Below, piece after piece: positions 1-46,264 of a stretch of 64,000 nt of DNA. Under the pieces are notes generated by a model. That model did no database searches. It was not told the origin of the DNA and saw nothing but the letters and a program-made list of their open reading frames with translations. The position numbers were made by a program, and so were the translations under genes. Each line of letters starts with the position of its first letter. Position 1 is the first letter of the stretch. Source of the stretch: Candidatus Omnitrophota bacterium (GTDB taxonomy: Bacteria > Omnitrophota > Gorgyraeia > Zapsychrales > Fredricksoniimonadaceae); the NCBI GenBank assembly GCA_037131245.1, contig JBAXRK010000005.1, positions 5,475-69,474 of the forward strand, in the 5' to 3' direction.

Positions 1-1
1 C

Positions 2-271
2 GACCGCATGAAGGGCGAGCCTTATAATGTCGGCCTTTCGGATGCCAATTTAAGCAAGCACGAGCTATGTGTTGAGATCAAGAAGCATGTCCCGGATCTT
101 TATTTTGTTGAAGCGGCGGTCGGGGAGGACCCGGATAAGCGGGATTATATCGTCTCCAATGAAAAGATCGAGAAGGCCGGGTTTAAGCCTGATATGTCGC
201 TTTCGGCGGGTATCGCCGAGCTGGTCAAGGCGTACGGGATCATTAAACGTAACGATTACGCCAATATCTGA
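2..271 (+). CDS. NAD-dependent nucleotide-sugar epimerase/dehydratase (extended SDR) family, C-terminal fragment; gene continues beyond the 5' edge
   Basis: Frame open from base 2; track ORF 8..271; EPYNVG...DKRDYIVSNEKI...GFKP tail resembles C-termini of SDR sugar epimerases/reductases. Confidence 0.55.
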   Translation, partial: DRMKGEPYNVGLSDANLSKHELCVEIKKHVPDLYFVEAAVGEDPDKRDYIVSNEKIEKAGFKPDMSLSAGIAELVKAYGIIKRNDYANI

Positions 272-272
272 T

Positions 273-1493
273 ATGGTCAAACTGATGCTTGCCGTCGTTA
301 TCCTGGCGGGCGGCGTGTTCTGCGGCCTGAGGCTCGCGTCACAGAAACTGCTGTGGAATGATGAGCTTTTTACCCAGGTGGAGACGATCGACCGCTTGAG
401 CACCCGGACGATCCTTGAGGCCCGGTTCCCGGAGGGGAATTTGAGCCCTCTGTTCTATCTTGGCCAGAAATTCATTTGCCGCCTGGCGGATTATCGTTTG
501 CCGGTGGCCTGGCGCGGCGAATTCTGCGTTTATGAACCCCGCGGGCAGGTGTTGTTGCGGATCCTGCCGGTGGTGTGCATGTCGCTGGCGGTCGCCCTGA
601 TCTTTTTATATTTTTCTTGGCGTGAGTCGGTCGGGTTCGGGTTGCTGAGCGCGGCGGTGACCCTGTCGGGTTTCAGTATTTGGGCTTTTCTGCCGGAGGC
701 GCGGCCTTACGCGCTGTGGGTTTTGCTGTGCGCCCTTCAGGGCATGCTGTTCATGGAGATCCTCGGGCCCCAGAAGGAGAACAGCGCGCGGCGGATCTGG
801 GTATGGTTGGCCGTGGTCAACGGGCTGTTATCGCTGACGATCTTTTTTGCCGCGTTGCCGATCGTGGCGGTGTCGGCAGTCCTGCTCGTGAGGGACCGCA
901 CACGGTATTGGCGCTGGTGCGTACCGGTGACGGTGATCCCTCTGGCGGTGTGCGTTTTGTACTATGTTCTTTCCAAGCGGACATATCCGAACCTTTCCCA
1001 GGAACCTGCCAGCGTCCTGTTGATGCTCAAGGGCGGATTGACGATGGTTTTTTCCGGAGCGTTGTGGGCGCAGAGAGACCTGATCCTGACCAACGTGCCG
1101 CCGTTCTGGTTTTATTTTATCGCGGCCGGATCGCTGGCGTCCGCGGCCTGCCGCGTACCCGCGGGTACGGCGGGGATGGCGGGTTCCAAGGCGGTGGTTG
1201 ATGGTTTGCTGGCGGCTTTCCTGCTGATGCTGGGCATGGCGCTGGCGGTGATCGTCTGGTTCCTGGGTTGGAAAGCCAGCGGGAACTTCGGGGTGGCGGA
1301 ACGGTATTTTATTTTCCTGACGCCTGCGGCGCTTCTTTTGATCGTGGCGCTTATCAGGCACGGATGGTATCTGACGGAAAATGACCGCTGGGGCCGCTTG
1401 ATCGTGATCGTTGGGACGGGCTCCATGATCGCGCTTTCGTCATTATGGACGTATGTGCATCTGATGAAATGGGGGCCGTTTTGGTCGGTTTGA
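273..1493 (+). CDS. polytopic inner-membrane protein, GT-C-like glycosyltransferase candidate
   Basis: Track ORF 69..1493, but its first 68 codons overlap the upstream gene; ATG 273 lies 1 nt after that gene's TGA; many hydrophobic helices; acidic WNDELF motif after TM1 as in ArnT/PMT-type GT-C enzymes. Confidence 0.55.
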   Translation: MVKLMLAVVILAGGVFCGLRLASQKLLWNDELFTQVETIDRLSTRTILEARFPEGNLSPLFYLGQKFICRLADYRLPVAWRGEFCVYEPRGQVLLRILPVVCMSLAVALIFLYFSWRESVGFGLLSAAVTLSGFSIWAFLPEARPYALWVLLCALQGMLFMEILGPQKENSARRIWVWLAVVNGLLSLTIFFAALPIVAVSAVLLVRDRTRYWRWCVPVTVIPLAVCVLYYVLSKRTYPNLSQEPASVLLMLKGGLTMVFSGALWAQRDLILTNVPPFWFYFIAAGSLASAACRVPAGTAGMAGSKAVVDGLLAAFLLMLGMALAVIVWFLGWKASGNFGVAERYFIFLTPAALLLIVALIRHGWYLTENDRWGRLIVIVGTGSMIALSSLWTYVHLMKWGPFWSV

Positions 1494-2205: not shown

Positions 2206-3204
2206 ATGATCATATCAAGAACGCCCTTTCGTATTTCCTTTTTTGGTGGCGGCACCGATTATCCGGCGTGGTTCCGGGATAATCCCGGCGCGGTCCTGGC
2301 GACGACCATCGACAAGTATTGTTATTTGACGGTGCGCCATTTGCCGCCGTTCTTTGAGTACCGCTCGCGGATCATTTATTCCAAGACCGAGCATGTGCAG
2401 GCGATCGACGAGATCGACCACCCTTCCGTGCGCGAGACTTTGCGTTTTCTTAACATCAATGACGGGATCGAGGTCCATCACGACGGGGACCTGCCCGCGC
2501 GCACGGGGCTTGGCTCCAGCTCTTCCTTTACGGTCGGCTTGCTCAATGTGCTTTACGCGCTTAAGGGCGAGATGATCACCAAGCAGCAGCTGGCGGAACA
2601 GGCGATCCATATCGAGCAGGACTTGATCAAGGAGAATGTGGGCTCACAGGACCAGGCCCTGGCCGCTTTCGGCGGGTTTAACCTAATCGAGTTCAGCGGC
2701 GACGGCCATTTTAATGTGCGGCGCTTGACGCTGCCGGCGGCCCGCATGCGGGACCTGCAGGACCACATGATGCTGTTTTTTACCGGGTTCTCACGGACGG
2801 CGTCCCAGATCGCCGCGCATCAGATCCAGAACATACCTAATCGCCGTAAAGAATTGACGACGATGTATGGTTTTGTGCAGGAGGGGCTTAAGTGCCTGAA
2901 TGCGGATGACCTCACAGGCTTCGGGCGTTTGCTTAATGAAAGCTGGAAGCTCAAGCGCACCTTGTCGGACAAGATCACGACGGATGTGATCGACGATATT
3001 TACAGCCGGGCGATGAAAGCCGGCGCGCTTGGCGGCAAATTGCTGGGGGCGGGTGGCGGCGGGTTCGTTCTGATCTACGCCGAACCGGACCGCAAGCCGG
3101 CCGTGCGCGATGCCTTGAGCGGTTTTCTGGAGATCCCTTTTAAATTCGAGGGGCTCGGCAGCCAGATCATTTTTTATCAGCCAAACAGCGGGGTGGTGGT
3201 ATGA
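2206..3204 (+). CDS. hddA: GHMP-family sugar kinase, D-glycero-alpha-D-manno-heptose 7-phosphate kinase-like
   Basis: N-terminus MIISRTPFRISFFGGGTDYP and GHMP motifs (PARTGLGSSSSF, GAGGGGF) typical of HddA-type heptose kinases. Confidence 0.7.
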   Translation: MIISRTPFRISFFGGGTDYPAWFRDNPGAVLATTIDKYCYLTVRHLPPFFEYRSRIIYSKTEHVQAIDEIDHPSVRETLRFLNINDGIEVHHDGDLPARTGLGSSSSFTVGLLNVLYALKGEMITKQQLAEQAIHIEQDLIKENVGSQDQALAAFGGFNLIEFSGDGHFNVRRLTLPAARMRDLQDHMMLFFTGFSRTASQIAAHQIQNIPNRRKELTTMYGFVQEGLKCLNADDLTGFGRLLNESWKLKRTLSDKITTDVIDDIYSRAMKAGALGGKLLGAGGGGFVLIYAEPDRKPAVRDALSGFLEIPFKFEGLGSQIIFYQPNSGVVV

Positions 3205-3902
3205 AAGCGGACTTTTTACTTTTATGCGGTGGGCTGGGGACGCGCCTGCGGTCGGTCACGGGGGACGCCCCCAAGGTCATGGCTGAGGTCCAGGGTGAGC
3301 CGTTCCTCGATTTTCTTATCCGCTATTTGATCAAGCAAGGCGCCGAACGGGTGATCTTATGCGCCGGGTATAAAGCCGAGTCATTGGCGGGCCATTACCG
3401 GGACAAGTTCCGCGAGATCGATGTGCAGATGTCGATCGAGCCTTCACCCCTGGGGACGGGCGGCGCGTTCAAGAATGCCCAGAAGTTGCTGAAGAATGAT
3501 GTTGTGTTCGGGCTTAACGGCGATTGCTTTACGCCGGTCTCTTACGGGCAGATGCTGGCCGAACATCAGAAGCGCGACGCCATGGTAACGCTGGTTGGCG
3601 TGAAGGTGGAAGGCAATAAGGATTTCGGCACGATCGTGATGAATGAACGGGATGAAGTGCTGGCGTTCAAGGAAAAGTTCGAAACGTCCGAGGTACAGCA
3701 CATCAGCGCCGGCATTTACAGTTTTCGCCGGGATGTTTTCGATCTGATGCCTGAGGGTAAATTTTCTATCGAATATGATTTCTTCCCCAAGATGATCGGC
3801 AAGGGTTTTTACGGTTTCAAAGTGGACGCGCCGTTCATTGATATCGGGACGCCGGAGCGCTTTGAATGGGCGAAGAAGCACCTCAAGGAGATGCTGCCGT
3901 GA
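3201..3902 (+). CDS. hddC: sugar-1-phosphate nucleotidyltransferase, D-glycero-alpha-D-manno-heptose 1-phosphate guanylyltransferase-like
   Basis: LCGGLGTRLR...PK nucleotidyltransferase signature, EPSPLGTGGA; ATGA overlap with hddA stop. Confidence 0.65.
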   Translation: MKADFLLLCGGLGTRLRSVTGDAPKVMAEVQGEPFLDFLIRYLIKQGAERVILCAGYKAESLAGHYRDKFREIDVQMSIEPSPLGTGGAFKNAQKLLKNDVVFGLNGDCFTPVSYGQMLAEHQKRDAMVTLVGVKVEGNKDFGTIVMNERDEVLAFKEKFETSEVQHISAGIYSFRRDVFDLMPEGKFSIEYDFFPKMIGKGFYGFKVDAPFIDIGTPERFEWAKKHLKEMLP

Positions 3903-5068
3903 AAATTCAGGTTGGCGAGGAATCAAAGAAGGCCGGATATAAAGTTCCCTTCGGGACGGTGTCGATCACGGATAAAGCGCGCCGGTTGATCGACGAGGCC
4001 CTAGAGACCAAGTGGGTCACCAAGGGGAAATACGTCAAGGAGTTCGAGGAGAAATTCGCTGCCTTGTTCGGCGTGAAATACGGCGTGGCGGTCTCCAGCG
4101 GGACGGATGCCGACGCGCTGGCTTGCGCGGCGCTTTATGATCTGGGGGCCAAACGCGGGGACGAGGTCATTGTGCCGGCTCTGTCGTTCGTGGCGACCGG
4201 TAACGCGGTCTTTCAGGCGGGATTAACGCCGGTTTTCGTTGACGTCAAGCGCGACACGCTCAATATCGATCCCGACAAGATCGAGGCGAAGATCACGGCC
4301 CGCACCAGGGCGATCATGCCGGTGCATCTGATGGGCAAGCCGGCCGAGATGGACCGGATCCTCGCGATCGCCCGTAAGCATAACCTGCGGGTCATTGAAG
4401 ATGCCGCTGAGGCGCATGGCGCTGAGTACCGGGGCCAGAAGATCGGCGCGATCGGCGACATGGCCTGCTTTAGCCTTTACGCGGCGCATATCGTGACCAC
4501 GATCGAAGGCGGGATCATCATTACCAATGACGAGAAGGCTGCCGAGGCGCTGCGCTCCTTGCGCAATCACGGGATGACCGGAAAATTCACTTTTTCGCGT
4601 ATAGGGTTTTCGGCTAAGATGAACGAGATCGAAGCGGCGGTGGGGCTGGGGAACATCGATATTTTCCAGAAGATCCTCGATACCCGCCGGCGCAATATGC
4701 TCTACCTGATCGATAAGTTCGCCCGCTTTGACAAGGTTTTTCTGACCCTCAAGGAGGAAGCGCACGAGAAGCTGGGGCCTCACGCGTTCTCGATCATCTT
4801 GCGCGAAGGCGCGGGTTTTTCCAAAGATGAGTTCGTGGCTTATATCGAGGCGCAGGGTATCGATTCGCGCAATCTCTTTTATTCCATGCCGACGCAGTGC
4901 CCCAGTTACGCGTTTTTAGGCTATCAGCTCGGGGATTTTCCGGAGGCTGAGTATTGTAGCGATCACGGGACGCATATCGGGATCCATCAGGATATCGACG
5001 TCAGCCAGCTTGACCATGTGGTTGCGGTGGTTGAGAAGTTCTTAAGTACAAAAGGAGTGCGTTATTAA
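3899..5068 (+). CDS. DegT/DnrJ/EryC1-fold PLP/PMP enzyme with His at the Schiff-base lysine position (ColD/E1-like sugar 3-dehydratase candidate)
   Basis: Track ORF 3866..5068; GTG 3899 forms a GTGA overlap with the hddC stop; fold motifs SSGTDA, DEVIVPALSF, IEDAAEAHG; active-site block reads CFSLYAAHIVTTIEGG (His codon 4487..4489). Confidence 0.75.
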   Translation: MKIQVGEESKKAGYKVPFGTVSITDKARRLIDEALETKWVTKGKYVKEFEEKFAALFGVKYGVAVSSGTDADALACAALYDLGAKRGDEVIVPALSFVATGNAVFQAGLTPVFVDVKRDTLNIDPDKIEAKITARTRAIMPVHLMGKPAEMDRILAIARKHNLRVIEDAAEAHGAEYRGQKIGAIGDMACFSLYAAHIVTTIEGGIIITNDEKAAEALRSLRNHGMTGKFTFSRIGFSAKMNEIEAAVGLGNIDIFQKILDTRRRNMLYLIDKFARFDKVFLTLKEEAHEKLGPHAFSIILREGAGFSKDEFVAYIEAQGIDSRNLFYSMPTQCPSYAFLGYQLGDFPEAEYCSDHGTHIGIHQDIDVSQLDHVVAVVEKFLSTKGVRY

Positions 5069-12186: not shown

Positions 12187-14010
12187 ATGGCATCTGTTTA
12201 TATTCTGGGGATCTCGGGCTATTATCATGACAGCGCGGCAGCGCTGCTCAAGGACGGCGTTATTATCGCTGCCGCCCAGGAAGAGCGTTTCACCCGCAAG
12301 AAGCATGATGCCGCTTTTCCTTCAAAAGCGGTAGCGTATTGCCTTAAAGAAGCCGGGATCACGATCAAGGACGTGACGCATGTTGCTTTCTATGAGAAGC
12401 CGTTCTTGAAGTTCGAGCGCCTGTTGCTCACATATCTCAATTACGCGCCGTCCGGGCTTTTGTCTTTCCTTAAAGCTATGCCGGCCTGGCTTAAAGAAAA
12501 GATCTTCCTTAAGGATGCGCTGCAAAAGGAACTAGGGTGGGAGGGGGATATTGTTTTCCCGGAACATCACGAGTCGCACGCGGCGTCGGCTTTTTTCCCG
12601 TCGCCTTTTGAAGACGCGGCTATCCTCACCATGGACGGTGTCGGCGAATGGGCGACCACCAGCATTGGCATCGGGGAAGCGAATGCTATCCGGCTGCACA
12701 GTGAACTGCGCTTCCCGCACTCTCTCGGGCTGCTTTATTCCGCTTTTACTTATTATTGCGGTTTTCGCGTGAACTCCGGTGAGTATAAATTGATGGGCCT
12801 AGCGCCCTACGGCGAGCCGAAATACGCCGACCTTATCCGCCAGGAATTGATCGATATCAAGGACGACGGTTCTTTCCGGTTGAACATGCCGTATTTCAAT
12901 TATTGCGCCGGGCTCACCATGACCAGCGAGCGTTTCCATAAGTTGTTCGGCCGGGGCCCACGCAAGCCGGAGACAGCCCTGTCTCAATTTGATATGGACC
13001 TGGCCCGTTCGATCCAGGCGGTGACGGAAGAGGTGATGGTGAAGACCGCGCGGCATGTGCGCGCGCTGACCGGTAAAAAGAACCTGTGCCTGGCTGGCGG
13101 GGTGGCGCTTAATTGTGTGGGGAACGGGCGTATTGCCCGCGAGAATATTTTTGACCGGATCTGGATCCAGCCGGCGGCTGGCGATGCTGGTGGCGCATTA
13201 GGCGCGGCGCTTTTTGTCTGGTACCAGTACTTAGGGAATGCCCGGAAGGTCGATGGCAAGAACGATCTTCAGTCGGGCTCTTATCTGGGGCCGGGTTACG
13301 CGGATGATGAGGTGGAGGTGTTCCTGAAGGCGAAGAAGGCTCCGTATGAGCGCTATGATGATCCGGTGTTACATGAGCGGGTGGCGGATCTGATCGCCGG
13401 CGAGAAAGTGATCGGTTATGTACAGGGCCGTATGGAGTTCGGGCCGCGGGCGCTGGGGGCGCGCAGTATCATCGGGGACGCCCGGTCGCTGAAGATGCAG
13501 GAAGAGATGAACGTGCGCATCAAGTTCCGGGAGTCTTTCCGTCCTTTTGCGCCGAGCATCCTGGAAGATAAAGCGAAGGATTATGTCGCACTGCCTTATG
13601 AGAGCCCGTATATGCTGATGGTGGGGCCGGTGGTGGAAAGTCAGATCGATCCCGCATCGCGCGATACCTCGCTTACCGGCATTGCCAAGCTCAAGGTCAA
13701 ACGATCGACGGTGCCTGCTATCACGCACGTGGATTATTCCGCGCGCGTTCAGACGGTCAGCCCAGGGCGGAACGGTTTTTATTACCGGACGATCGAAGCC
13801 TTTTACAAGAAGACCGGCTGCCCGGTCATTATCAATACGTCGTTCAATATCCGCGGGGAACCGATCGTGTGCACGCTGGAGGATGCGTACCGGTGTTTTA
13901 TGTGCACGAACATGGATTTTCTGGTCCTGGGCCATTGCGTGCTGGACAAACAGCAGCAACCCGACCGCGACAAGTATAAAAAGGACGATATCTCACAGGT
14001 ATTGGATTGA
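12187..14010 (+). CDS. NodU/CmcH-family carbamoyltransferase
   Basis: MASVYILGISGYYHDSAAALLKDGVIIAAAQEERFTRKKHD N-terminus, length about 600 aa and C-terminal CmcH_NodU-type region. Confidence 0.85.
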   Translation: MASVYILGISGYYHDSAAALLKDGVIIAAAQEERFTRKKHDAAFPSKAVAYCLKEAGITIKDVTHVAFYEKPFLKFERLLLTYLNYAPSGLLSFLKAMPAWLKEKIFLKDALQKELGWEGDIVFPEHHESHAASAFFPSPFEDAAILTMDGVGEWATTSIGIGEANAIRLHSELRFPHSLGLLYSAFTYYCGFRVNSGEYKLMGLAPYGEPKYADLIRQELIDIKDDGSFRLNMPYFNYCAGLTMTSERFHKLFGRGPRKPETALSQFDMDLARSIQAVTEEVMVKTARHVRALTGKKNLCLAGGVALNCVGNGRIARENIFDRIWIQPAAGDAGGALGAALFVWYQYLGNARKVDGKNDLQSGSYLGPGYADDEVEVFLKAKKAPYERYDDPVLHERVADLIAGEKVIGYVQGRMEFGPRALGARSIIGDARSLKMQEEMNVRIKFRESFRPFAPSILEDKAKDYVALPYESPYMLMVGPVVESQIDPASRDTSLTGIAKLKVKRSTVPAITHVDYSARVQTVSPGRNGFYYRTIEAFYKKTGCPVIINTSFNIRGEPIVCTLEDAYRCFMCTNMDFLVLGHCVLDKQQQPDRDKYKKDDISQVLD

Positions 14011-14013
14011 GCC

Positions 14014-14412
14014 ATGGATAAAGAGAAGAAAGATCTTTTAGTTTTTGGTTATGGGTTAGCGGTTATTGCCGTTTTCTTCGCGGCCGGTGGCGCGCTTAAG
14101 CACGGCTTTGGTTTAGCGCAGCAGGTCCTGGTCGTTTGCGCTTTGGTCTTTGCCGGCGTGACGCTTTTAGATTGGCAGGCGCTGCGTCCGGGTTACAAGG
14201 GTTGGATGAAGGTCGCGCATGTGATCGGCGGCGTGGTGACCACCGCGATCCTGACCGTGGTGTTTGTGGTGCTGTTCGTACCCATCGGTTTGTTCCTTCG
14301 GCTGGTTGGCAAGGATCATCTGGAGCGCGGGCTCGACCGTTCGGCGGCCAGTTATTGGCATCGGCGCCCGGAGGGGGCGTTCGATCGGGAAAGTTATCGT
14401 CAGCAATTTTAA
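14014..14412 (+). CDS. SxtJ-family small membrane protein
   Basis: 132 aa, 3-4 TM helices, C-terminal ...SYWHRRP...; position immediately after the carbamoyltransferase as in sxtI-sxtJ-sxtK arrangements. Confidence 0.6.
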   Translation: MDKEKKDLLVFGYGLAVIAVFFAAGGALKHGFGLAQQVLVVCALVFAGVTLLDWQALRPGYKGWMKVAHVIGGVVTTAILTVVFVVLFVPIGLFLRLVGKDHLERGLDRSAASYWHRRPEGAFDRESYRQQF

Positions 14413-14584: not shown

Positions 14585-15651
14585 TGCCTGAAAGCGTGGC
14601 CCCGCAACGTATCCTGGTTGTCAATCCTTTTGGTATTGGGGATGTCCTTTTTACGACTCCGTTGATCGGCGCGCTTAAGCAACGGTATCCGGCGGCCTCG
14701 ATCAGTTATATCGGCAATGCCCGGACCGTGCCCTTTTTGAAGAATGATTCCCGCCTTGAGCGTGTTTTTTGTTATGAGCGGGATGATTTCGTTGCCATTT
14801 ACCGGAAGTCCCCGATCCGGTTTCTCCGCCGCTGGTTCGATTTTGCCCAGGAAATACGGGCGGGTGGTTTTGACACGGCTTTTGACCTTTCCCTTGGTTC
14901 ACCATTGGCGCTGGCGCTGGTTTGGGCGGGGATTCCCCGGCGGATCGGCTACGATCATAAGGGCCGCGGCCGCTGGCTAACGGACAAAGTTCCGCTCAAG
15001 GGGTATGAAGCGCGCCATGTGGCGGCCTATTATCTGGATCTTCTTGGTGGCACCCGGCCGGCCGGCCGGATGGAGATCTTTTCGTCGGACGCTGATAAAA
15101 CCCGGGCGGCTGCCTTCAGGCGGACCCATCAGTTAACGGAGCGTGGTTTTACGGTGATCCATCCCGGCGGAGGAGCCAGCTGGGGGAACAGCGCGGGCCT
15201 CAAGCGCTGGCCCGCCGTTAATTTTGCCGGATTAGCCGACAAAATGATTGAAAAAGGGGGGCTGCCCATTATACTGATGGGTGATAAAAATGAGGTTGCA
15301 TTGTGCGCGGAAGTCGCCGGCCTCATGAAGCATCGGCCTATTTTAGCGGCTGGGGCGTTGAGCCTGACCGAAGCGGCGGCGGTGATGGGTGCCGCGAAGC
15401 TGGTCGTAGCTAATGATGGCGGGCCGTTACATGTTGCCGTCGCGGCGGGTGCGGTAACAGCGTCGATCTTCGGTCCGGTCGATCCCGTGGTGTATGGCCC
15501 TTATCCGCCGGATACGCATCTGGTGGTCCAGAAAGGCCTGGCTTGCCAGCCTTGTTATCGTCGTTTTCGGATGTCTGATTGCCGGCATCAGGCTTGCCTT
15601 AAGTCTCTTTCGGTGGATGAAGTCTTTAATAAAATATCGAGGTTAATATGA
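14584..15651 (+). CDS. glycosyltransferase family 9 (heptosyltransferase family)
   Basis: ILVVNPFGIGDVLFTTPLIGALK N-terminus, NDGGPLHVA motif; TGATG junction with upstream stop. Confidence 0.75.
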   Translation: MPESVAPQRILVVNPFGIGDVLFTTPLIGALKQRYPAASISYIGNARTVPFLKNDSRLERVFCYERDDFVAIYRKSPIRFLRRWFDFAQEIRAGGFDTAFDLSLGSPLALALVWAGIPRRIGYDHKGRGRWLTDKVPLKGYEARHVAAYYLDLLGGTRPAGRMEIFSSDADKTRAAAFRRTHQLTERGFTVIHPGGGASWGNSAGLKRWPAVNFAGLADKMIEKGGLPIILMGDKNEVALCAEVAGLMKHRPILAAGALSLTEAAAVMGAAKLVVANDGGPLHVAVAAGAVTASIFGPVDPVVYGPYPPDTHLVVQKGLACQPCYRRFRMSDCRHQACLKSLSVDEVFNKISRLI

Positions 15652-16745
15652 GCGTGCCATTCATTGATTTTTCTAAACAGAACGCGGCGATCAAGGCTGA
15701 AGTGGATGCCGGCTGGTCGACGGTGATCGACAAGTCCGCGTTCATCATGGGCCCTCAGGTTAAAATGTTCGAGGAGGAATTTGCCCGCTTTTGCGGCGTT
15801 AAGTATGCCCTGGGTGTCAATTCAGGGACTGACGCGCTTTATCTGGCTTTATCCGCCCTGGATATCGGGCCTGGTGATGAGGTTATCCTGCCGACGCATA
15901 CGTTCATCGCGACGGCGCTTTGCGTGTCGTATACCGGCGCCACGGTCAAGTTCGTGGACGTTGAGGATGTAACGTACAATATCGATCCGGCCAGTTTGGC
16001 GAAAGCGGTGACCAACAAGACCAAGGCGGTCATCCCGGTCCATTTGTATGGCCAGATGGCGGATATGGACGGGATCCGGGCGGTGACCGATAAGCACGGC
16101 ATCGCGATCGTCGAGGACGCCTGCCAGGCACACGGGGCGCGGTACAAAGGCGTGCGCAGCGGCGCGGCGGGAAAGGCCGGCTGTTTCAGTTTCTATCCGA
16201 CCAAAGGGCTGGGTGGTTGGGGGGATGGCGGCGCGGTCATTACCAATGATGATAAAGTTAAATATATGGTCGAGATGCTGCGCGATTATGGCCGCACCGA
16301 CCGGTATAATCATAAAATGAAGGGCTTTAATTCCCGCCTTGATACGATGCAGGCGGTGGTGCTGTCGGCCAAGCTGAAGCATCTTGATCAATGGAACGGG
16401 ATGCGGCAGAAAGTAGCCGCGGTTTACGCGACTGAGTTGGGGCGCATCGGGGTGAAGGTTCCGCAAGCGGCACCCGACCGTGATCATATGTATCAGACGT
16501 ACGCGATCCGCGTGAAGGATCGCGAACGGGTGATGGAGAGCCTCAAGTCCCGCGGGATACCGTCGCTCATTCATTATCCTATTCCGGTCCATTTGCAGGA
16601 AGCTTATCGGGACGCCGGTTATAAGGCGGGGGACTTCCCGGTTTCCGAGAAGATCGCTTCCGAGATCCTGTCGCTGCCGCTGTTCCCTCATATGACCGCC
16701 GATCAGGTCAGGGAAGTCGTTAACGCTTTAAAGGAGAGCCTTTGA
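15648..16745 (+). CDS. DegT/DnrJ/EryC1/StrS family sugar aminotransferase
   Basis: NSGTDALYLA, DEVILPTHTF, VEDACQAHGA, lysine retained in FSFYPTKGLGGWGDGG; ATGA overlap upstream. Confidence 0.8.
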   Translation: MSVPFIDFSKQNAAIKAEVDAGWSTVIDKSAFIMGPQVKMFEEEFARFCGVKYALGVNSGTDALYLALSALDIGPGDEVILPTHTFIATALCVSYTGATVKFVDVEDVTYNIDPASLAKAVTNKTKAVIPVHLYGQMADMDGIRAVTDKHGIAIVEDACQAHGARYKGVRSGAAGKAGCFSFYPTKGLGGWGDGGAVITNDDKVKYMVEMLRDYGRTDRYNHKMKGFNSRLDTMQAVVLSAKLKHLDQWNGMRQKVAAVYATELGRIGVKVPQAAPDRDHMYQTYAIRVKDRERVMESLKSRGIPSLIHYPIPVHLQEAYRDAGYKAGDFPVSEKIASEILSLPLFPHMTADQVREVVNALKESL

Positions 16746-17515
16746 TGCCCAGTCCGGTCTCGGTTGTTATCATTGCGCGGAATGAAGAAGACAATATGGA
16801 CGCTTGCCTTTCCAGTGTCAAGGGGTGGGCGGACGAGATCGTGGTCGTCGACGACCGTTCCACTGACCGGACGGTTGAGATCGCTCAGAAGCTTGGCGCG
16901 ACGGTTTATCATCGCCAGATGGATAATGAGGGCATCCACCGCAATTGGGCCGCGGCTCAGGCCCGGAACGAATGGGTTCTTTATCTTGACGCTGATGAGC
17001 GGGTTACGCCCGAACTTCAGAAAGAGATCGACACAGTCCTGCCGGGCACTTCGCACGTGGCCTTCGCTATTCCCTTTCGCACTTTTATCGGGGCTTACTG
17101 GGTGAATCATTCCGGCTGGTACCCGGGCCACAAAACCCGCCTGGTGCGCAAAAGCAAATTCAAGTATGAAGAAGTGCCGGTGCATCCCCGGGTTTTTCAC
17201 GACGGGACCTGCGGCTTGATGACCAAAGATATCATTCATGACGGTTATCCCGACCTGGCGCACTTTCTTGCCAGCCTCAACCGCCAGACCACCCTGGAAG
17301 CACAGAAGTGGGTGACCGACAAGCGCCGCATGCCGATGTATATCGGTTTTTACCGCGCGATCGACCGGTTCTTTCGTTCTTACATCGGCAAGGGCGGATG
17401 GAGGGGCGGGTTCATGGGGTTTGTCATCGCCTATTTCGCGTCGTTATACCAGATCATGAGCTATATGAAATATTTCGAGATCACCAAAGGCATTACCGCC
17501 GGGACAAAGAAATGA
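16745..17515 (+). CDS. glycosyltransferase family 2, WaaE/KdtX-like LPS-core type
   Basis: VSVVIIARNEEDNMDACL...VVVDDRSTDRT, DADE motif, about 257 aa architecture with C-terminal GGWRGGFMGFVIA. Confidence 0.7.
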   Translation: MPSPVSVVIIARNEEDNMDACLSSVKGWADEIVVVDDRSTDRTVEIAQKLGATVYHRQMDNEGIHRNWAAAQARNEWVLYLDADERVTPELQKEIDTVLPGTSHVAFAIPFRTFIGAYWVNHSGWYPGHKTRLVRKSKFKYEEVPVHPRVFHDGTCGLMTKDIIHDGYPDLAHFLASLNRQTTLEAQKWVTDKRRMPMYIGFYRAIDRFFRSYIGKGGWRGGFMGFVIAYFASLYQIMSYMKYFEITKGITAGTKK

Positions 17516-18111
17516 AATTGGTTTTCCTTGATCGCGATGGCGTCATCAATGAATTTCCCGGTAACGGGCTTTACGTGACCAAGGTCAAGGATTTTCATTT
17601 CCTGCCCAGGACGTTGCGGGCGCTCAAGCGCCTGACGGACGGCGGCTACCATATTTTTGTGATCTCCAACCAGGCGGGCGTTGGCAAAGGGGTTTACTCT
17701 AAGGCCAAGCTCGGGCAGATCACCGCGCACATGCTTAAAGGGGTCAAAGCCGCCGGGGCCAGGATCGATGAGGTTTTTTATTGCACCTGCAAGTCTTCCG
17801 CTGGCTGCCATTGCCGCAAACCTCGGATCGGGAATATCCTCAAGGCGCTTAAGACGATCGACAAACCCATCGATGCCGCCCGTCACGCCTGGTTCGTCGG
17901 TGATACCGAAGGGGATATCAAGGCCGGGAAAAATGCCGGTTGCCGCACTATTTTCACCCTCTCGGGCCGCGAAAACCAGGAGTACATGAACCGTTGGGAT
18001 GTTCGTCCTGACCATATCGTGGAGGACCTTTATGACGCCGTCGACATCATCCTCAGCCAAGATCCTCATCCTGCACGCCAACGCGGGCGCGGGGCATCGC
18101 AAAGCCGCTGA
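17512..18111 (+). CDS. gmhB: HAD-IIIA D-glycero-D-manno-heptose 1,7-bisphosphate 7-phosphatase
   Basis: Track ORF 17308..18111; conserved start MKLVFLDRDGVIN (ATG 17512, ATGA overlap); SNQAGVGKG, C..CRKP Zn-loop, GDTEGDIKAG. Confidence 0.75.
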   Translation: MKLVFLDRDGVINEFPGNGLYVTKVKDFHFLPRTLRALKRLTDGGYHIFVISNQAGVGKGVYSKAKLGQITAHMLKGVKAAGARIDEVFYCTCKSSAGCHCRKPRIGNILKALKTIDKPIDAARHAWFVGDTEGDIKAGKNAGCRTIFTLSGRENQEYMNRWDVRPDHIVEDLYDAVDIILSQDPHPARQRGRGASQSR

Positions 18112-19159: not shown

Positions 19160-20812
19160 ATGATCGCGCATCTTGTTTTTCCCGTTCCGGTCGACAGTCA
19201 TTTTGATTATCTGATCCCGCCTGCTTTGGCCGGGAAGGTCGTGCCGGGTTGCCGCGTGCAGGCGGTTTTTGCCCGCAAGAAGAGCGTGGGGGTGGTCGTC
19301 GGCCTGGCCGAGCATTCTGACTATAAGGACCTGATCACCATCATCAAAGTGCTTGATGAAGTGCCGCTCTTTTCAGCGGCCATGCTGGCGTTCTGCCGGG
19401 ATTTCGCGACGCACAATGCCTGCTCATTCGGCGAGGCTTTATTCATGTGTTTACCGGCGGCGTTGCGCAAGGCCCGTCGCAAAGAGACCGGCGGTTGGGC
19501 ACAGGAGATCGCGGTATCAAAGCCGCAACCGCGACATGGCCTGATCTTCGACGCATCATTTGACAAGCGCTGGGAGATCCTGCTGCCACGCATGCGCGCT
19601 GAATTGGAGGCGGGGCGGAGCGTTCTGGTTCTTGTCCCGGAGAGCTCTTGCCTGGAAGAAGTTTTGCCCCATCTCGGGCCCTTGGTTGGACCGGAAGGGC
19701 GGGTCCTTTTACGTCACGATACCGAAAAAGAAGAATACGCGCGCTGGCTTAAGGTCCGCCGGGGAGAGGCGAAGCTGGTGGTCGGTTTCTTGTCGGCTGT
19801 ATTCGCCCCGGCGCAGTCGCTGGGATTGATTGTGGTGGTGGATGAGGAAAGCCGGTTTTATAAGAACGACCAGACCCCTTTTTACCACGCGCGCGAAGCC
19901 GCGTTCCTGCGCGCGCAAAAAGAAAAAGCTTCGCTTATATGTGTATCGAGCGCTCCTTCGGTTGAATTGTGGCGTGAGGTTGCGCAACAGCGCGTGGCCC
20001 TTGAGCGGGTGGAGGCACCGTTGCCGTCTGTCCGGTTCTTGGATGTTTCCAATTTCAAAATGAAGAAGGGCAGCTTACTTTCGCCTGGATTGCGCCTTCA
20101 TTTGGAAAAAGTGCTTAAAGAGCGCGGGAAAGCATTGCTTTATGTGCCGGCGGCAAAAGGGGTCGGGTATGTGCTCGAGGAGATCCGGAAGTATATGCCA
20201 AGCGCCAGGGCGGCCGGATATGAGAAGTCGTCTTCCGCCCGGCCCGACGTGGATATCCTGGTGGCCACGCAAGCTATTTTCCGCTTCCGTGGCCGGGTCA
20301 CCTATGATTTCGCGGCGGCGCTGGATATCGATTATGAATTTCATAAGGCCGATCATCGTGCGGCGCATGGGGCGTTCGCTCTGGTGCAGTATTTGCGCCA
20401 AATGTCGCGCAAGCCGGTCCTGGTGCAGACCCGCGATCCCAAAAGCCCTCAGTTGCATGCGATCGCGGATGATGGCCATGAAAAGTTTTATGCCCAGGAA
20501 ATACAGTTGCGCGAGGAGGTGGGGTTTCCGCCGTTCGGCGTTTTTGTCGCGCTGGTCGTCCGCTCGGCTGATCCTGAACTTGCTTGCGCGGAGTGTAAAA
20601 GGCTTTATGATATGTTGACCGCGGCCGCTTCTGAGGGGGTCAATGTGATGGAGCCCCAGCAGGACCGGGCGGCTATTGTGCGCGGCAAGTTCCGTTGGCG
20701 CGTGATCTTGCAGGGCATGGACAGGGCCGGGACCGTTGCCATGGCGCGCGGGGTGGCCCTTAAATTCCGCGGAAAAAAGGACACCGTTCTAACGGTGAAT
20801 ATCGACCCATGA
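19160..20812 (+). CDS. priA: primosomal protein N' (PriA)-like, short form with degenerate helicase motifs
   Basis: N-terminal 3' DNA-binding-type region (FPVPVDSHFDYLIP...GCRVQAVF...VGVVVGL), LVLVPE, VVVDEES, ILVATQ; sits directly upstream of fmt as priA often does. Confidence 0.65.
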   Translation: MIAHLVFPVPVDSHFDYLIPPALAGKVVPGCRVQAVFARKKSVGVVVGLAEHSDYKDLITIIKVLDEVPLFSAAMLAFCRDFATHNACSFGEALFMCLPAALRKARRKETGGWAQEIAVSKPQPRHGLIFDASFDKRWEILLPRMRAELEAGRSVLVLVPESSCLEEVLPHLGPLVGPEGRVLLRHDTEKEEYARWLKVRRGEAKLVVGFLSAVFAPAQSLGLIVVVDEESRFYKNDQTPFYHAREAAFLRAQKEKASLICVSSAPSVELWREVAQQRVALERVEAPLPSVRFLDVSNFKMKKGSLLSPGLRLHLEKVLKERGKALLYVPAAKGVGYVLEEIRKYMPSARAAGYEKSSSARPDVDILVATQAIFRFRGRVTYDFAAALDIDYEFHKADHRAAHGAFALVQYLRQMSRKPVLVQTRDPKSPQLHAIADDGHEKFYAQEIQLREEVGFPPFGVFVALVVRSADPELACAECKRLYDMLTAAASEGVNVMEPQQDRAAIVRGKFRWRVILQGMDRAGTVAMARGVALKFRGKKDTVLTVNIDP

Positions 20813-21753
20813 GGATCGTTTTCTTTGGCTGCGACGATTTTGCGGCGGTCAGCCTTCAGCGTTTGATCGACGAGGGGCATACGCTGGCCGCGCTGGTGAC
20901 CCAGCCCGACCGCCCCAGCGGGCGTGGATTGCAGGTCATCTCCGGCCCGACCAAAGAAATGGGGTTGCGCCACGCCATCGAGGTTTTGCAGCCGCAGGAC
21001 CTTAATGCCAGCGAGGTTATCAGCAAACTAAAAGAGTATGCCGCGGACGTTTTTGTGGTGGTGGCCTACGGGAAATTCCTGCCCGCGGCGGTGCTGGGTA
21101 TCCCAAAATATTTTTGCGTGAATGTTCATCCGTCCTTATTACCGAAATACCGGGGGGCCGCGCCTGTTAACTGGGCGGTGATCAATGGCGATACGCTAAC
21201 GGGGGTTACGCTCATCAGGATGGATCCTTCCATGGATGGCGGCGATATTCTTGCTCAAGAGCCTTATCCTGTTCCTGAAGAGATGACGGCGGCCGCGTTA
21301 AGGGATCGTTTGGCCGTCTTCGGTGCCGATATGCTGGCCGGCTTGTTGCCGCGGATACCGTCAGGGGCATTCACTTGCGTTAAACAGGACGGGGCGCTAG
21401 CGACCCGCGCGCCTAAACTCAGCAAGGAACTTGGCCACATCCATTGGCAGGACAGCGCGAAAAAGATCCATGACCTTGTTCGGGGAACGCAACCCTGGCC
21501 GGGGGCGTTTACATATTTCAATGGAAAGCTACTGAAGGTCTTAGAGGTTGGTGTGGCAGATGTCGCTGAGGCCTGCTCTACGGCAGCAACGAAGCCGGGG
21601 GAGATCCTTGAGCTACGTAAGGATGGTTTTTGCGTTCAGGCCGGCGATCGGGCGGTGCTGGTCAAGCGCGTGCATCCGGCTGGGGGCAAAGCCATGGATG
21701 CCCGCAGTTTTTGTGCCGGGCATAAGCTGTCTACGGGTGATAAGCTGGGTTGA
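20809..21753 (+). CDS. fmt: methionyl-tRNA formyltransferase
   Basis: MRIVFFG...VTQPDRPSGRG...NVHPSLLPKYRGAAP...DGGDIL plus C-terminal Fmt domain; ATGA overlap with priA. Confidence 0.9.
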   Translation: MRIVFFGCDDFAAVSLQRLIDEGHTLAALVTQPDRPSGRGLQVISGPTKEMGLRHAIEVLQPQDLNASEVISKLKEYAADVFVVVAYGKFLPAAVLGIPKYFCVNVHPSLLPKYRGAAPVNWAVINGDTLTGVTLIRMDPSMDGGDILAQEPYPVPEEMTAAALRDRLAVFGADMLAGLLPRIPSGAFTCVKQDGALATRAPKLSKELGHIHWQDSAKKIHDLVRGTQPWPGAFTYFNGKLLKVLEVGVADVAEACSTAATKPGEILELRKDGFCVQAGDRAVLVKRVHPAGGKAMDARSFCAGHKLSTGDKLG

Positions 21754-24034: not shown

Positions 24035-24454
24035 ATGCTTAATTTACCTGTGGGTGACATCATGAACGACCATCCTATTAAGGTGAAGGCGGATACGTTG
24101 GTGAAGAACGTGGCGCATTTGCTGTTACGGATCCGCGTTAGCGGGGTCCTGGTGATGGATGTGCGCGATCCCGAAAAGCTGGTCGGGGTTTTCACGATCA
24201 GGGACCTGCTGCATTTGATGGGTGAATCGGTGTCCCGCCGGCGCCAGAAGATGCAGGCGTTAAGTTCGGTGGGGAATCAGCCGGTCGGGAATTTTATCAA
24301 GGACCCCCTGGTCACGCTTCAAGTCAATGACAGCGCCGCCAAAGCGGTCGGCCTGATGCATAAGAAAGACGCGGTCACGATCCCTGTTTATGACGGGGGC
24401 CGGCTGGTGGGTGTTGTCGGCCGGCATGATATCATTAATGTCGCATTTCAGTAA
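24035..24454 (+). CDS. CBS-domain pair protein
   Basis: Two CBS repeats (VGDIMNDHPIKV...SGVLVMD; FIKDPLVTLQ...TIPVYDGGRLVGVVGRHDI). Confidence 0.7.
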   Translation: MLNLPVGDIMNDHPIKVKADTLVKNVAHLLLRIRVSGVLVMDVRDPEKLVGVFTIRDLLHLMGESVSRRRQKMQALSSVGNQPVGNFIKDPLVTLQVNDSAAKAVGLMHKKDAVTIPVYDGGRLVGVVGRHDIINVAFQ

Positions 24455-24476
24455 AGAGCGCGGGTCTGTAAACTTT

Positions 24477-25973
24477 ATGTCTATTGTCCTGGTCAATCCG
24501 AATCTGGTGGTGCAGAAGGCCGATCCTTTGACGACGGGAGTCGTGTATATGCCTATAACGCTGGCGTATGTGGCGGCAGCTTTACGCGCGAGCGGGCTAT
24601 CGGTCGATGTTATTGACGCTTATGGTGAGGCCCCGCTGCAAGCAAGGTCGCCGTCGGGGGCCGGTGCTTTCTGGATGTTCGGGCTCTCGGAAGACGAGGT
24701 TATCGCCCGTGTTCCCCGGGAGCCGCGCCTGTTCATTGTTTATGCCATTAACTTAACTAATCATGTTTCCACCGTCGGGATCGTCCGGAGCCTGAAACGT
24801 CATTTCCCTGATGTGCCATTGCTCGTGCTGGAGAATCCTAACGCGGTCACCGCTTACGCGTTAAATGAGGTAAAAGGGGCATTTTTTGAAGCCGGTGCGG
24901 ATTTTATCCTGACAGGTTACGCCGAACGCTCGGCGGTCGCGTTGGCGAAGGCCGTCTGCGATGGGCTGGCTATTAATAAAGCCTGCGGGATCCTTGGCCT
25001 GGGGGGGCGGGATTTTAAGACAGCGCCGGCTTTGGAGCAGGACGTTGAGCTGCCGTATCCGGCCTGGGACCTGTTCCCGCTCAAGAATTACTGGAGTTTG
25101 CGTTTTGCCCATGGCCCTGTTACAGGCCGGAAATATTTGCCTATCCTCACTTCACGCGGTTGCCCTTATGGCTGCCGGTTCTGTGTTACCCCTGCGGTCT
25201 CAGGGCAGCATTGGCATGGCCGGGAACCCGGGGATGTGGTTGCCGAGATGGCTTTTTGGAAGAAGTCCCAGGGGGTTGAGGAATTTCATTTTGAAGACCT
25301 TAATCCGACGGTCTCCGAAGACCGGATCCGGCGGATCTGCGAGGATCTGCTGGCCCGGAAGCTTGAAGTGACGTGGAAATTGGTGTCCGGGACTAAAGCG
25401 GAAACCATTCGGGATATGGCTACGGTGGACTTGATGGCCAGAGCCGGATGCCGGTACGTATCGATCTCACCGGAAACCGGTTCGGCGCGTGTTTTGCAAT
25501 CGATGGGCAAGCCTTTTGATGTGCCTCACGGGATGCGCCTGCTGCGGGCTTTGGGGCAGGCGGGGATCTATTCGCAGGCCTGCTTTGTCCTCGGGTTCCC
25601 CGGCGAGGAAGACAGCGACCGTGTGCTGACCGAAAAACTGGTCCGCGAAGCGGTACAAAGCGGCGTGGATGAGATCGCGCTGTTCGTGATCACGCCGGTG
25701 CCGGGATCGGCCATTTTCCGGGAATTCAATGGCTATTCTTCTTTATCCGAGTTAAACTTTTCTCCGGTTTGGCGCAAGGATTACGTGAAACTCAGCGCCT
25801 TTCGCCGACGGCTTTACGCCAAATTCCTTTGGTGGAAGTTGCGCTATCGCCCGGGGGCGTTGCTGGCCCAGCCGTGGCGTTTTCTGACGAGGAAGTTTGA
25901 AACCAAGATGGAAATGGTCCCGTATCGGGCGGCGGTTTTATTCTTGGCCGGCAGCCGGAAAGGAAAAAAATGA
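24477..25973 (+). CDS. B12-binding-domain radical SAM protein
   Basis: Track ORF 24390..25973; ATG 24477 (MSIVLVNPN) starts the B12-binding-like domain; CxxxCxxC cluster in TSRGCPYGCRFC. Confidence 0.75.
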   Translation: MSIVLVNPNLVVQKADPLTTGVVYMPITLAYVAAALRASGLSVDVIDAYGEAPLQARSPSGAGAFWMFGLSEDEVIARVPREPRLFIVYAINLTNHVSTVGIVRSLKRHFPDVPLLVLENPNAVTAYALNEVKGAFFEAGADFILTGYAERSAVALAKAVCDGLAINKACGILGLGGRDFKTAPALEQDVELPYPAWDLFPLKNYWSLRFAHGPVTGRKYLPILTSRGCPYGCRFCVTPAVSGQHWHGREPGDVVAEMAFWKKSQGVEEFHFEDLNPTVSEDRIRRICEDLLARKLEVTWKLVSGTKAETIRDMATVDLMARAGCRYVSISPETGSARVLQSMGKPFDVPHGMRLLRALGQAGIYSQACFVLGFPGEEDSDRVLTEKLVREAVQSGVDEIALFVITPVPGSAIFREFNGYSSLSELNFSPVWRKDYVKLSAFRRRLYAKFLWWKLRYRPGALLAQPWRFLTRKFETKMEMVPYRAAVLFLAGSRKGKK

Positions 25974-45700: not shown

Positions 45701-46264
45701 ATGGCTTATTACGATGAGACACAATTGAAAGCTCTGGGGTTCAAGCGCCTGGGCAAGAATGTAAAGATAAGCACCCACGCGAGCATTTATAATGCTGAGA
45801 TGATCGAGGTCGGCGATCATTCCCGGGTGGACGATTTCTGTTTGTTGTCAGGAAAGATCACGATCGGGAAGTTTGTGCATGTGGCGCCCTACTGCAATAT
45901 GGCGGGTGGTGAAAAAGGGATCGTCATGGAAGATTTTTCCGGACTGGCTTATGGCGTGCAGGTCTTTACCCAGTCGGATGATTACAGCGGCAAGACCCTC
46001 ACAAATCCTACCGTCCCGGACCGTTTCAAGAATGAAACCAAGAAAGAGATCCTGATCCGGCGGCATTCTATTGTAGGCACCGGCTCGGTTATTCTGCCCG
46101 GGGTCACGTTGGAGGAAGGCACGTCGGTCGGGGCGATGTCACTGGTCAGGAAATCAACCCAGGCCTGGGGCATTTACATGGGGAATCCGGCGAAGCGGAT
46201 CATGGAAAGGCACCGCGACCTGCTGGCTCTTGAAGAGGAATTCTTGAAAGGCCCCGCGTGTTGA
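45701..46264 (+). CDS. left-handed beta-helix (hexapeptide) acyltransferase, amino-sugar N-acyltransferase-like (VioB-type)
   Basis: Hexapeptide repeats (IGDHSRVDDFCLLSGKITIGKFVHVA; IVGTGSVILPGVTLEEGTSVGAMSLV); located next to the wecE-like gene. Confidence 0.65.
   Translation: MAYYDETQLKALGFKRLGKNVKISTHASIYNAEMIEVGDHSRVDDFCLLSGKITIGKFVHVAPYCNMAGGEKGIVMEDFSGLAYGVQVFTQSDDYSGKTLTNPTVPDRFKNETKKEILIRRHSIVGTGSVILPGVTLEEGTSVGAMSLVRKSTQAWGIYMGNPAKRIMERHRDLLALEEEFLKGPAC

Follow-up and report, generated by a model that had tools for sequence, protein, structure and literature searches.

The window analysed here, a stretch of 64,000 nucleotides from the Candidatus Omnitrophota bacterium assembly GCA_037131245.1 (contig JBAXRK010000005.1, positions 5,475 to 69,474 of the forward strand), carries a gene for a protein of the DegT fold, hereafter DegT-His, in which a histidine occupies the position of the lysine that forms the Schiff base with pyridoxal 5'-phosphate (PLP). 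On balance, we favour the reading that DegT-His is a pyridoxamine 5'-phosphate (PMP)-dependent nucleotide-sugar 3-dehydratase of the ColD type without an iron-sulphur (Fe-S) cluster, which would turn a guanosine diphosphate (GDP)-linked 4-keto-heptose into a 3-deoxy heptose. This reading draws on the observed fold, the position of the histidine, the clade, the cofactor scaffold, the absence of Fe-S cysteines, the conservation of the operon and the homologies of the partner proteins. The GDP-linked 4-keto heptose is our best guess at the substrate, and the most probable product of the operon is a 3-deoxy GDP-heptose destined for the cell envelope. The features of the window are listed in Table 1; coordinates are window positions unless given on L001 (contig ERZ4200879 NODE_18), the window position being the L001 position minus 5474.

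Active-site histidine, cofactor scaffold and clade of DegT-His

The translation of the DegT-His open reading frame (ORF) contains CFSLYAAHIVTTIEGG, and its DegT/DnrJ/EryC1 domain is full-length. His197 lies opposite K186 of the Caulobacter GDP-perosamine synthase PerA (PDB 3bn1) in a pairwise HMMER alignment (E 6e-73), and the K186A mutant (3dr4) places an alanine in the same column. A196-H197 align with S187-H188 of ColD by BLASTP, with a ColD reference sequence that is 100% identical to PDB 2gms. In a multiple alignment His197 stands opposite H220 of E1 (AscC/DdhC/RfbH, the CDP-6-deoxy-L-threo-D-glycero-4-hexulose 3-dehydrase; PDB 3bcx), a column confirmed by the H220K mutant 3bb8. The sequence-only reading had placed histidine at the PLP-lysine position of this gene and lysine at that of the three other DegT genes of the window, and both statements hold (lysine motifs in Table 1). 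His197 is neither an error nor a chance change, since the identical protein occurs in two independent assemblies and the motif FSLYAAH[IV][IV]T is present in 120/120 of the closest 90%-identity clusters, with the histidine invariant. The GTG start (3899-3901) shares a 4-nt overlap with the TGA stop (3900-3902) of the preceding nucleotidyltransferase gene, as had been noted earlier, and an identical start/stop overlap is seen at this junction in the related locus L005. An alternative in-frame ATG at 3866 would add 11 residues; the 389-aa form is the one chosen in public gene calls.

The cofactor scaffold is conserved in DegT-His. Specifically, G68/T69, F97, D168, E171, S192, E203, S238/K240 and R324 correspond to G56/S57, W88, D159, E162, S183, E194, N248/R250 and R331 of ColD. 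The cysteines of the E1 [2Fe-2S] cluster (C193, C251, C253 and C261) are absent from DegT-His in the multiple alignment: A170 stands at the C193 position, and the other three lie within an insertion that DegT-His lacks. An Fe-S mechanism of the E1/SpnQ type is ruled out by the absence of these cysteines. Additionally, no E3-type reductase is evident in the operon. Having neither an Fe-S cluster nor a reductase partner, DegT-His would follow the ColD route, whose mechanism has been reviewed (PMC8987622); the characterised DegT enzymes with histidine in place of lysine are all 3-dehydratases (PMC8987622). An AlphaFold2 model of DegT-His (pLDDT 87) has the DegT fold, with Foldseek TM scores of 0.85-0.91 to 3bn1, 0.87/0.81 to E1 3bb8 and 0.82 to ColD 2gms.

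Among the 150 best 50%-identity cluster representatives, the catalytic column holds histidine in 75 and lysine in 72, and the top scorers are nearly all of the histidine type. We built a neighbour-joining (NJ) tree from 120 full-length sequences (64 His, 56 Lys), including ColD, E1, PerA and the three DegT paralogues of the window. One clade comprises all 64 His sequences, ColD and E1 among them, while the other comprises all 56 Lys sequences. This split was recovered in 62/100 bootstraps with the His/Lys column removed and with Kimura distances capped for very divergent pairs, and every replicate required at most three changes between lysine and histidine. Several further characters follow the same division. 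A 3-residue insertion (query 80-82) is found in 64/64 His sequences and 0/56 Lys sequences; the conserved histidine of the aminotransferases at query position 73 is lost in the His clade; the residue before the catalytic position is Ala or Ser in the His clade versus Asn or Thr in the Lys sequences; and Gly361 of the His clade stands against a proline. ColD sits on a separate basal branch, and the closest relatives of DegT-His beyond the Omnitrophota orthologue group are ~53% identical. The sequence comparisons thus support placing DegT-His with the His-bearing clade of ColD and E1 and not nested among the true aminotransferases. The His-bearing representatives also include large subfamilies with altered motifs (e.g. 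AHLLVTGVGG, AHVVFSGQF and TSHF..AH; relatives P0121-P0270), for which we know of no characterised member. One distant member of the clade (P0131, locus L088) has only generic short-chain dehydrogenases/reductases (SDRs) as neighbours.

Conserved operon and proposed conversion

A scan of species-representative genomes yielded 320 relatives of DegT-His. Locus counts are given over the best 80, all from Omnitrophota or Omnitrophota-like metagenome-assembled genomes and with a DegT-His that is 71-89% identical; neighbours were mapped by tblastn and blastp, and gene order was read from the 47 loci whose sequence extends 8 kb or more upstream of the gene. In these 47/80 loci the genes form a co-oriented operon: UDP-glucuronate decarboxylase, in some cases a carbamoyltransferase, an E1_dh-like and a Transket_pyr-like subunit of a thiamine diphosphate (ThDP) enzyme, an Fcl-like SDR, a second SDR (SDR2), a B12 radical-S-adenosylmethionine (radical-SAM) enzyme, a GHMP kinase, the nucleotidyltransferase, DegT-His, and finally a GT4 glycosyltransferase or an MsbA-like ABC transporter. 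The Fcl-like reductase and the B12 radical-SAM enzyme belong to the operon in most related Omnitrophota genomes.

SDR2, whose 3' end opens the window, matches PDB 6vo6/6vo8 with 57% identity, gap-free over 308 aa (E 1e-135), the next best PDB match having an E value of 1e-23. The 6vo6 entry corresponds to a C. jejuni protein of 313 aa, which we take to be Cj1427, the GDP-heptose C4-dehydrogenase. SDR2 has a counterpart at 57/80 related loci, and the outgroup locus L087 carries one as well. On sequence similarity, SDR2 is the likely source of the 4-keto substrate. Cj1427 uses 2-oxoglutarate to produce GDP-D-glycero-4-keto-heptose, with the 6-OH retained (PMC10680097). An earlier suggestion that the truncated SDR at the 5' edge, or a gene upstream of it, might be a 4,6-dehydratase is not supported. 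The edge gene is the one that matches 6vo6. The second SDR upstream matches human UXS1 (E 1e-102), which makes it a UDP-glucuronate decarboxylase / UDP-xylose synthase; in L025 a nucleotide-sugar dehydrogenase gene stands before it. No 4,6-dehydratase of the Gmd/DmhA type is present in the conserved operon across the 47 loci. The UDP-glucuronate decarboxylase, which is the best SDR against dTDP-glucose dehydratase models, was also considered as the 4-keto donor and set aside, as it is missing from L087.

The four best PDB matches of the GHMP kinase, including 3k85, 4usk and 4n3o, are all heptose kinases (E 1e-32 to 1e-34), and the gene is found in 66/80 related loci. The nucleotidyltransferase adjoins DegT-His in 75/80 loci and its best models are guanylyltransferases. 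The coupling of DegT-His to hddC proposed from the sequence stands as far as the overlap with an HddC-like gene goes, the name itself being a family-level label only (152 vs 300 bits). The 75 nucleotidyltransferase copies fall into ~30 clusters at 60% identity, while the adjacent DegT-His, kinase and SDR are 70-90% identical; the nucleotidyltransferase evolves much faster than its neighbours, which may reflect relaxed constraint, gene replacement or a changed nucleotide specificity. In 31 related loci a homologue of the GmhB-like phosphatase follows DegT-His at a distance of 2-10 kb downstream. In the window its HAD-IIIA and histidinol-phosphatase domain models pass, and its true start is probably further downstream than 17308, because the match covers only residues 68-251 of the ORF. 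The public ENA record lacks this ORF and calls instead a minus-strand ORF of 184 aa with no Pfam match (L004 1492-2046).

The nearest outgroup homologue of DegT-His (P0121, locus L087) is 52-54% identical. Its neighbours are a Cj1427-like SDR (45% identical), the two subunits of the ThDP enzyme (56% and 46%) and the B12 radical-SAM enzyme (56%), with no kinase or transferase near it. From this recurrence the functional core would therefore be the C4-dehydrogenase, DegT-His, the ThDP enzyme and the radical-SAM enzyme. The ThDP enzyme keeps the GD-X26-DN cofactor motif and is distant from solved structures (E 5e-8 to the alpha subunit of pyruvate dehydrogenase (PDH) E1). Its subunits, one E1_dh-like (~200 aa) and one Transket_pyr-like (167-194 aa), reach about half the size of PDH E1 alpha and beta, and the pair is always linked to DegT-His (L005 3711-4909; L001 856-2006; L087 2421-3545).

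From these homologies we infer each catalytic step and the identity of the sugar. The Cj1427-like SDR would oxidise GDP-heptose at C4 to GDP-4-keto-heptose, whose C4 would then form a ketimine with the PMP bound to DegT-His. His197 would take the C4' proton with expulsion of the 3-OH, and hydrolysis of the resulting enamine would give GDP-3-deoxy-4-keto-heptose, ammonia and PLP. L-glutamate would restore PMP and leave as 2-oxoglutarate, which could in turn serve the C4-dehydrogenase, being the co-substrate for re-oxidising bound NADH in Cj1427-type enzymes. The two-enzyme conversion proposed here is chemically feasible, since Cj1427 combined with the ColD-type HS:5 C3-dehydratase gave GDP-D-glycero-3-deoxy-4-keto-heptose in vitro (PMC10680097). 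The subsequent steps are speculative. In most Omnitrophota the Fcl-like enzyme might epimerise and reduce the 4-keto-3-deoxy product, as ColC does; alternatively, the conserved two-subunit ThDP enzyme might attack that product at C4. The B12 radical-SAM enzyme of most Omnitrophota might also C-methylate it, before the final sugar enters an envelope glycan. For an attack at C4, yersiniose-type branching offers an analogy.

The genome of the window has a trimmed variant of this operon, in which three polytopic membrane proteins take the place of the Fcl-like and radical-SAM genes. Two of them (451 and 454 aa) are paralogues with 57% identity, and the third has 406 aa (L001 2008-4727 and window 273-1493); family searches with the three gave no matches. 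As polytopic membrane proteins with no family match they were rejected as pathway enzymes and read as insertions, and they could be glycosyltransferase-C or polymerase-like proteins. A radical-SAM gene of the window (24390-25973) was likewise rejected as the B12 radical-SAM orthologue, showing only 24% identity over half its length.

Comparison with known systems and competing explanations

DegT-His resembles ColD (WbdK) in its fold, in the equivalence of H197 and H188, in the absence of an Fe-S cluster, in the D/E/S/F scaffold and in the 3-residue insertion; its substrate is probably also GDP-linked, and a reductase resembling ColC/Fcl is encoded in most related Omnitrophota operons. The two differ in that DegT-His has Ala instead of Ser before the histidine and lacks the ~20-residue insert that follows residue 225 of ColD. 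Moreover, the partner of DegT-His appears to be a C4-dehydrogenase rather than a 4,6-dehydratase, and the gene is linked to ThDP and B12 radical-SAM enzymes. With E1, DegT-His shares the clade and the Ala-His pair, and RfbH is its top NCBIfam model, tied with PseC; it differs in having neither the [2Fe-2S] cysteines, nor the insertion carrying three of them, nor an evident E3-type reductase. PerA is the closest solved sequence and structure and also uses a GDP-4-keto sugar, but it is a true aminotransferase of the Lys clade, with Lys186 in an N-K motif and without the insertion of the His clade.

At the level of the pathway, homologues of all components of the C. jejuni GDP-heptose system (HddA, HddC, GmhB, Cj1427 and Cj1428) are found near DegT-His in Omnitrophota, the Fcl-like SDR in most genomes. 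This SDR (333-365 bits vs a cut-off of 500) presumably resembles Cj1428, which is a C4-reductase, as well as ColC, the colitose synthase. The Omnitrophota operon differs in having no cupin epimerase and in its added ThDP and B12 radical-SAM enzymes. Furthermore, Cj1427 has no natural C3-dehydratase partner in C. jejuni, the pairing having been made in vitro only (PMC10680097). The operon also resembles yersiniose-type pathways to branched 3,6-dideoxy sugars, as its sugar-nucleotide genes likewise bring SDRs together with a ThDP enzyme and an enzyme like a 3-dehydratase. Those pathways run from a 3-dehydratase through a ThDP-dependent two-carbon addition at C4 to a reductase. The ThDP enzyme here, however, is PDH-E1-like with subunits of ~200 and 180 aa, not an acetolactate-synthase-type YerE, and the substrate is probably a GDP-heptose, not a CDP-hexose.

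Several observations weigh against the proposed 3-dehydratase on GDP-4-keto-heptose. The best single PDB match of DegT-His is an aminotransferase, GDP-perosamine synthase, at 38-39% identity. Identity to ColD and E1 is only 30-32% (ColD 30% by BLASTP and 31.8% in the multiple alignment; E1 31%), and DegT-His scores below every NCBIfam equivalog cut-off (RfbH 250 bits vs 423; PseC 250 vs 423.5). By these sequence measures DegT-His is not an orthologue of ColD or E1. The support for the His clade is moderate (62%) and comes from NJ alone. Moreover, hardly any member of this very large clade has been characterised, and it may harbour other chemistries. The sugar-activation genes are also distant from their models: the nucleotidyltransferase lies far below the equivalog cut-offs (HddC 152 vs 300; the ManC-like man1P_GTase 157 vs 440), and the kinase reaches 137 bits against the HddA cut-off of 600. 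A tblastn search with the E. coli GmhA as query, covering the window, L001 and the 80 related loci, found no GmhA; the enzyme may be encoded elsewhere. Orthologues of the Fcl-like reductase and of the B12 radical-SAM enzyme were not found in the window's own contig, so that the proposed pathway does not account for the fate of the 4-keto group in this genome. Finally, the 6vo6 entry is taken as probably Cj1427, on the strength of its match to a C. jejuni protein of 313 aa. The C. jejuni HS:5/HS:11 orthologues of ColD, which are GDP-6-deoxy-4-keto-heptose C3-dehydratases, are 62-67% identical to ColD (PMC10440746); at 30-32%, DegT-His is therefore no orthologue of these heptose enzymes either.

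The competing explanation that best withstands these data, unlikely as we judge it, is that DegT-His performs another PMP/PLP reaction, such as transamination, epimerisation or elimination at another position, on a heptose-derived intermediate in concert with the ThDP and B12 radical-SAM enzymes. In its favour, the family diverges by 68% or more from each of the characterised 3-dehydratases, and it is tightly linked to an unusual minimal two-subunit ThDP enzyme and to a B12 radical-SAM enzyme, neither of which belongs to the known 3-dehydratase pathways. The catalytic histidine, the alanine before it (as in E1) and the whole cofactor scaffold nevertheless match ColD/E1, and the constant partner is a predicted 4-keto-generating enzyme, as a 3-dehydratase requires.

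It is less probable still that a ColD-like DegT-His acts on a GDP-6-deoxy-4-keto heptose or mannose to give a 3,6-dideoxy sugar, with a 4,6-dehydratase from another part of the genome providing the substrate. The sequence-only reading had arrived at a 3,6-dideoxyheptose; its GDP-linked 4-keto (hepto)sugar survives as our best guess at the substrate, and the 3,6-dideoxy product is not supported. Although membership of the His clade fits this explanation equally, and a GDP-fucose-synthase-like gene stands in most related operons as ColC does in the colitose pathway, the conserved operon holds no Gmd/DmhA-type dehydratase. Its SDRs are instead the UDP-glucuronate decarboxylase and the Cj1427-like C4-dehydrogenase, the latter accompanying DegT-His even in the distant L087. 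In favour of such a substrate, the known 3-dehydratases use 4-keto-6-deoxy sugars (PMC8987622, PMC10440746).

We consider it very improbable that DegT-His is an ordinary sugar aminotransferase in which another lysine forms the Schiff base. GDP-perosamine synthase is indeed its best PDB match in both sequence and fold, and K11, K147, K229 and K240 are invariant among the orthologues; yet the alignment places none of these lysines at an active-site position, K240 lying opposite ColD R250 and E1 K290 on a loop of the partner subunit. The grouping with the His clade, the insertion with its co-varying residues and the invariance of the histidine in all 120 clusters also argue against it. A catalytically dead, structural or regulatory paralogue, to which the loss of the canonical lysine might point, is scarcely credible in view of the 71-89% identity over the 80 best loci, the intact cofactor scaffold and the translational coupling inside a biosynthetic operon.

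Wider meaning and other features of the locus

If DegT-His is the proposed 3-dehydratase on GDP-4-keto-heptose, its pairing with a C4-dehydrogenase predicts natural GDP-3-deoxy-heptoses, which to our knowledge have been made only in vitro to date. As far as we know, there are few sugar 3-dehydratases, and each of those characterised takes over from a 4,6-dehydratase. The pathway logic would thus be new, with C3-deoxygenation coupled to C4-oxidation in a module that spans an uncultivated phylum and includes ThDP and B12 radical-SAM enzymes. We tentatively raise a broader possibility, less probable than the assignment of DegT-His itself: that in Omnitrophota and at least one distant lineage a module of Cj1427-like SDR, DegT-His, ThDP enzyme, B12 radical-SAM enzyme and often an Fcl-like SDR makes an undescribed 3-deoxy-heptose for the envelope, one that keeps its 6-OH and undergoes branching at C4 through ThDP chemistry, C-methylation or chain extension through the radical-SAM enzyme, or both. 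In that event it might be the first natural route to place C3-deoxygenation after C4-oxidation and not after 4,6-dehydration. The linkage of the ThDP and B12 radical-SAM enzymes suggests further, undescribed carbon-skeleton chemistry on an Omnitrophota envelope sugar. In addition, what seems a rare class of 3-dehydratases may prove to be a large family of unexplored enzymes, since His-type DegT proteins are as numerous as Lys-type ones among the 150 nearest representatives and form many uncharacterised subfamilies. The prediction lends itself to direct testing, as every component is a soluble enzyme and the substrates are available.

Table 1 Features of the window discussed in the text
Feature	Position	Strand	Basis or remark
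DegT-His gene, putative PMP-dependent nucleoside diphosphate-4-keto-sugar 3-dehydratase, His197-type	3899..5068	+	389 aa; PF01041 352 bits
CAT codon of His197, Schiff-base lysine position	4487..4489	+	alignment to PerA, ColD and E1
SDR2, putative Cj1427-like GDP-heptose C4-dehydrogenase, 310 aa, 3' end in window	1..271 (full gene L001 4813-5745)	+	PDB 6vo6 match
GHMP sugar kinase, heptose-7-phosphate-kinase-like (HddA/WcbL-like)	2206..3204	+	PDB heptose-kinase matches
Sugar-1-phosphate nucleotidyltransferase, HddC-like/ManC-like	3201..3902	+	man1P_GTase 157 bits, HddC 152 bits
DegT gene, Lys motif FSFYPTKGLGGWGDG	15648-16745		unassigned; in NJ tree
GmhB-like heptose-bisphosphate phosphatase (HAD-IIIA)	17308..18111	+	NF006506 141 bits vs 178 cut-off
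WecE-type aminotransferase, Lys motif YSFHETKNYTCGEG	46258-47388		passes WecE model
PseC, Lys motif FSFHPVKTITTGEG	56897-58105		passes PseC model; adjoins PseB

Other genes of the window lie within or beside this envelope-glycan locus. At 12187-14412, together with the small ORF that comes next, the window encodes in order a carbamoyltransferase (Carbam_trans_N/C, 607 aa), an SxtJ-like protein and a DUF5989 protein. This trio is known from saxitoxin-type clusters but here forms part of an envelope-glycan locus. Twelve related Omnitrophota loci also have the carbamoyltransferase, in most cases upstream of the ThDP subunits. The housekeeping genes priA and fmt (methionyl-tRNA formyltransferase) are situated at 19160-21753, in the middle of the glycan biosynthesis locus. 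Between 24390 and 30363, GT2 glycosyltransferases are interspersed with a second set of unusual enzymes, which consists of a ~500-aa radical-SAM protein, a radical-SAM/SPASM protein, a methyltransferase and an amine-oxidase-like protein that is FAD-dependent. A hexapeptide acyltransferase accompanies the WecE-type aminotransferase (45701-47388), and the PseB/PseC pair (55948-58105) represents the start of pseudaminic acid synthesis. With these two further gene sets present, the number of distinct pathways to amino or deoxy sugars encoded in the 64 kb comes to at least four.

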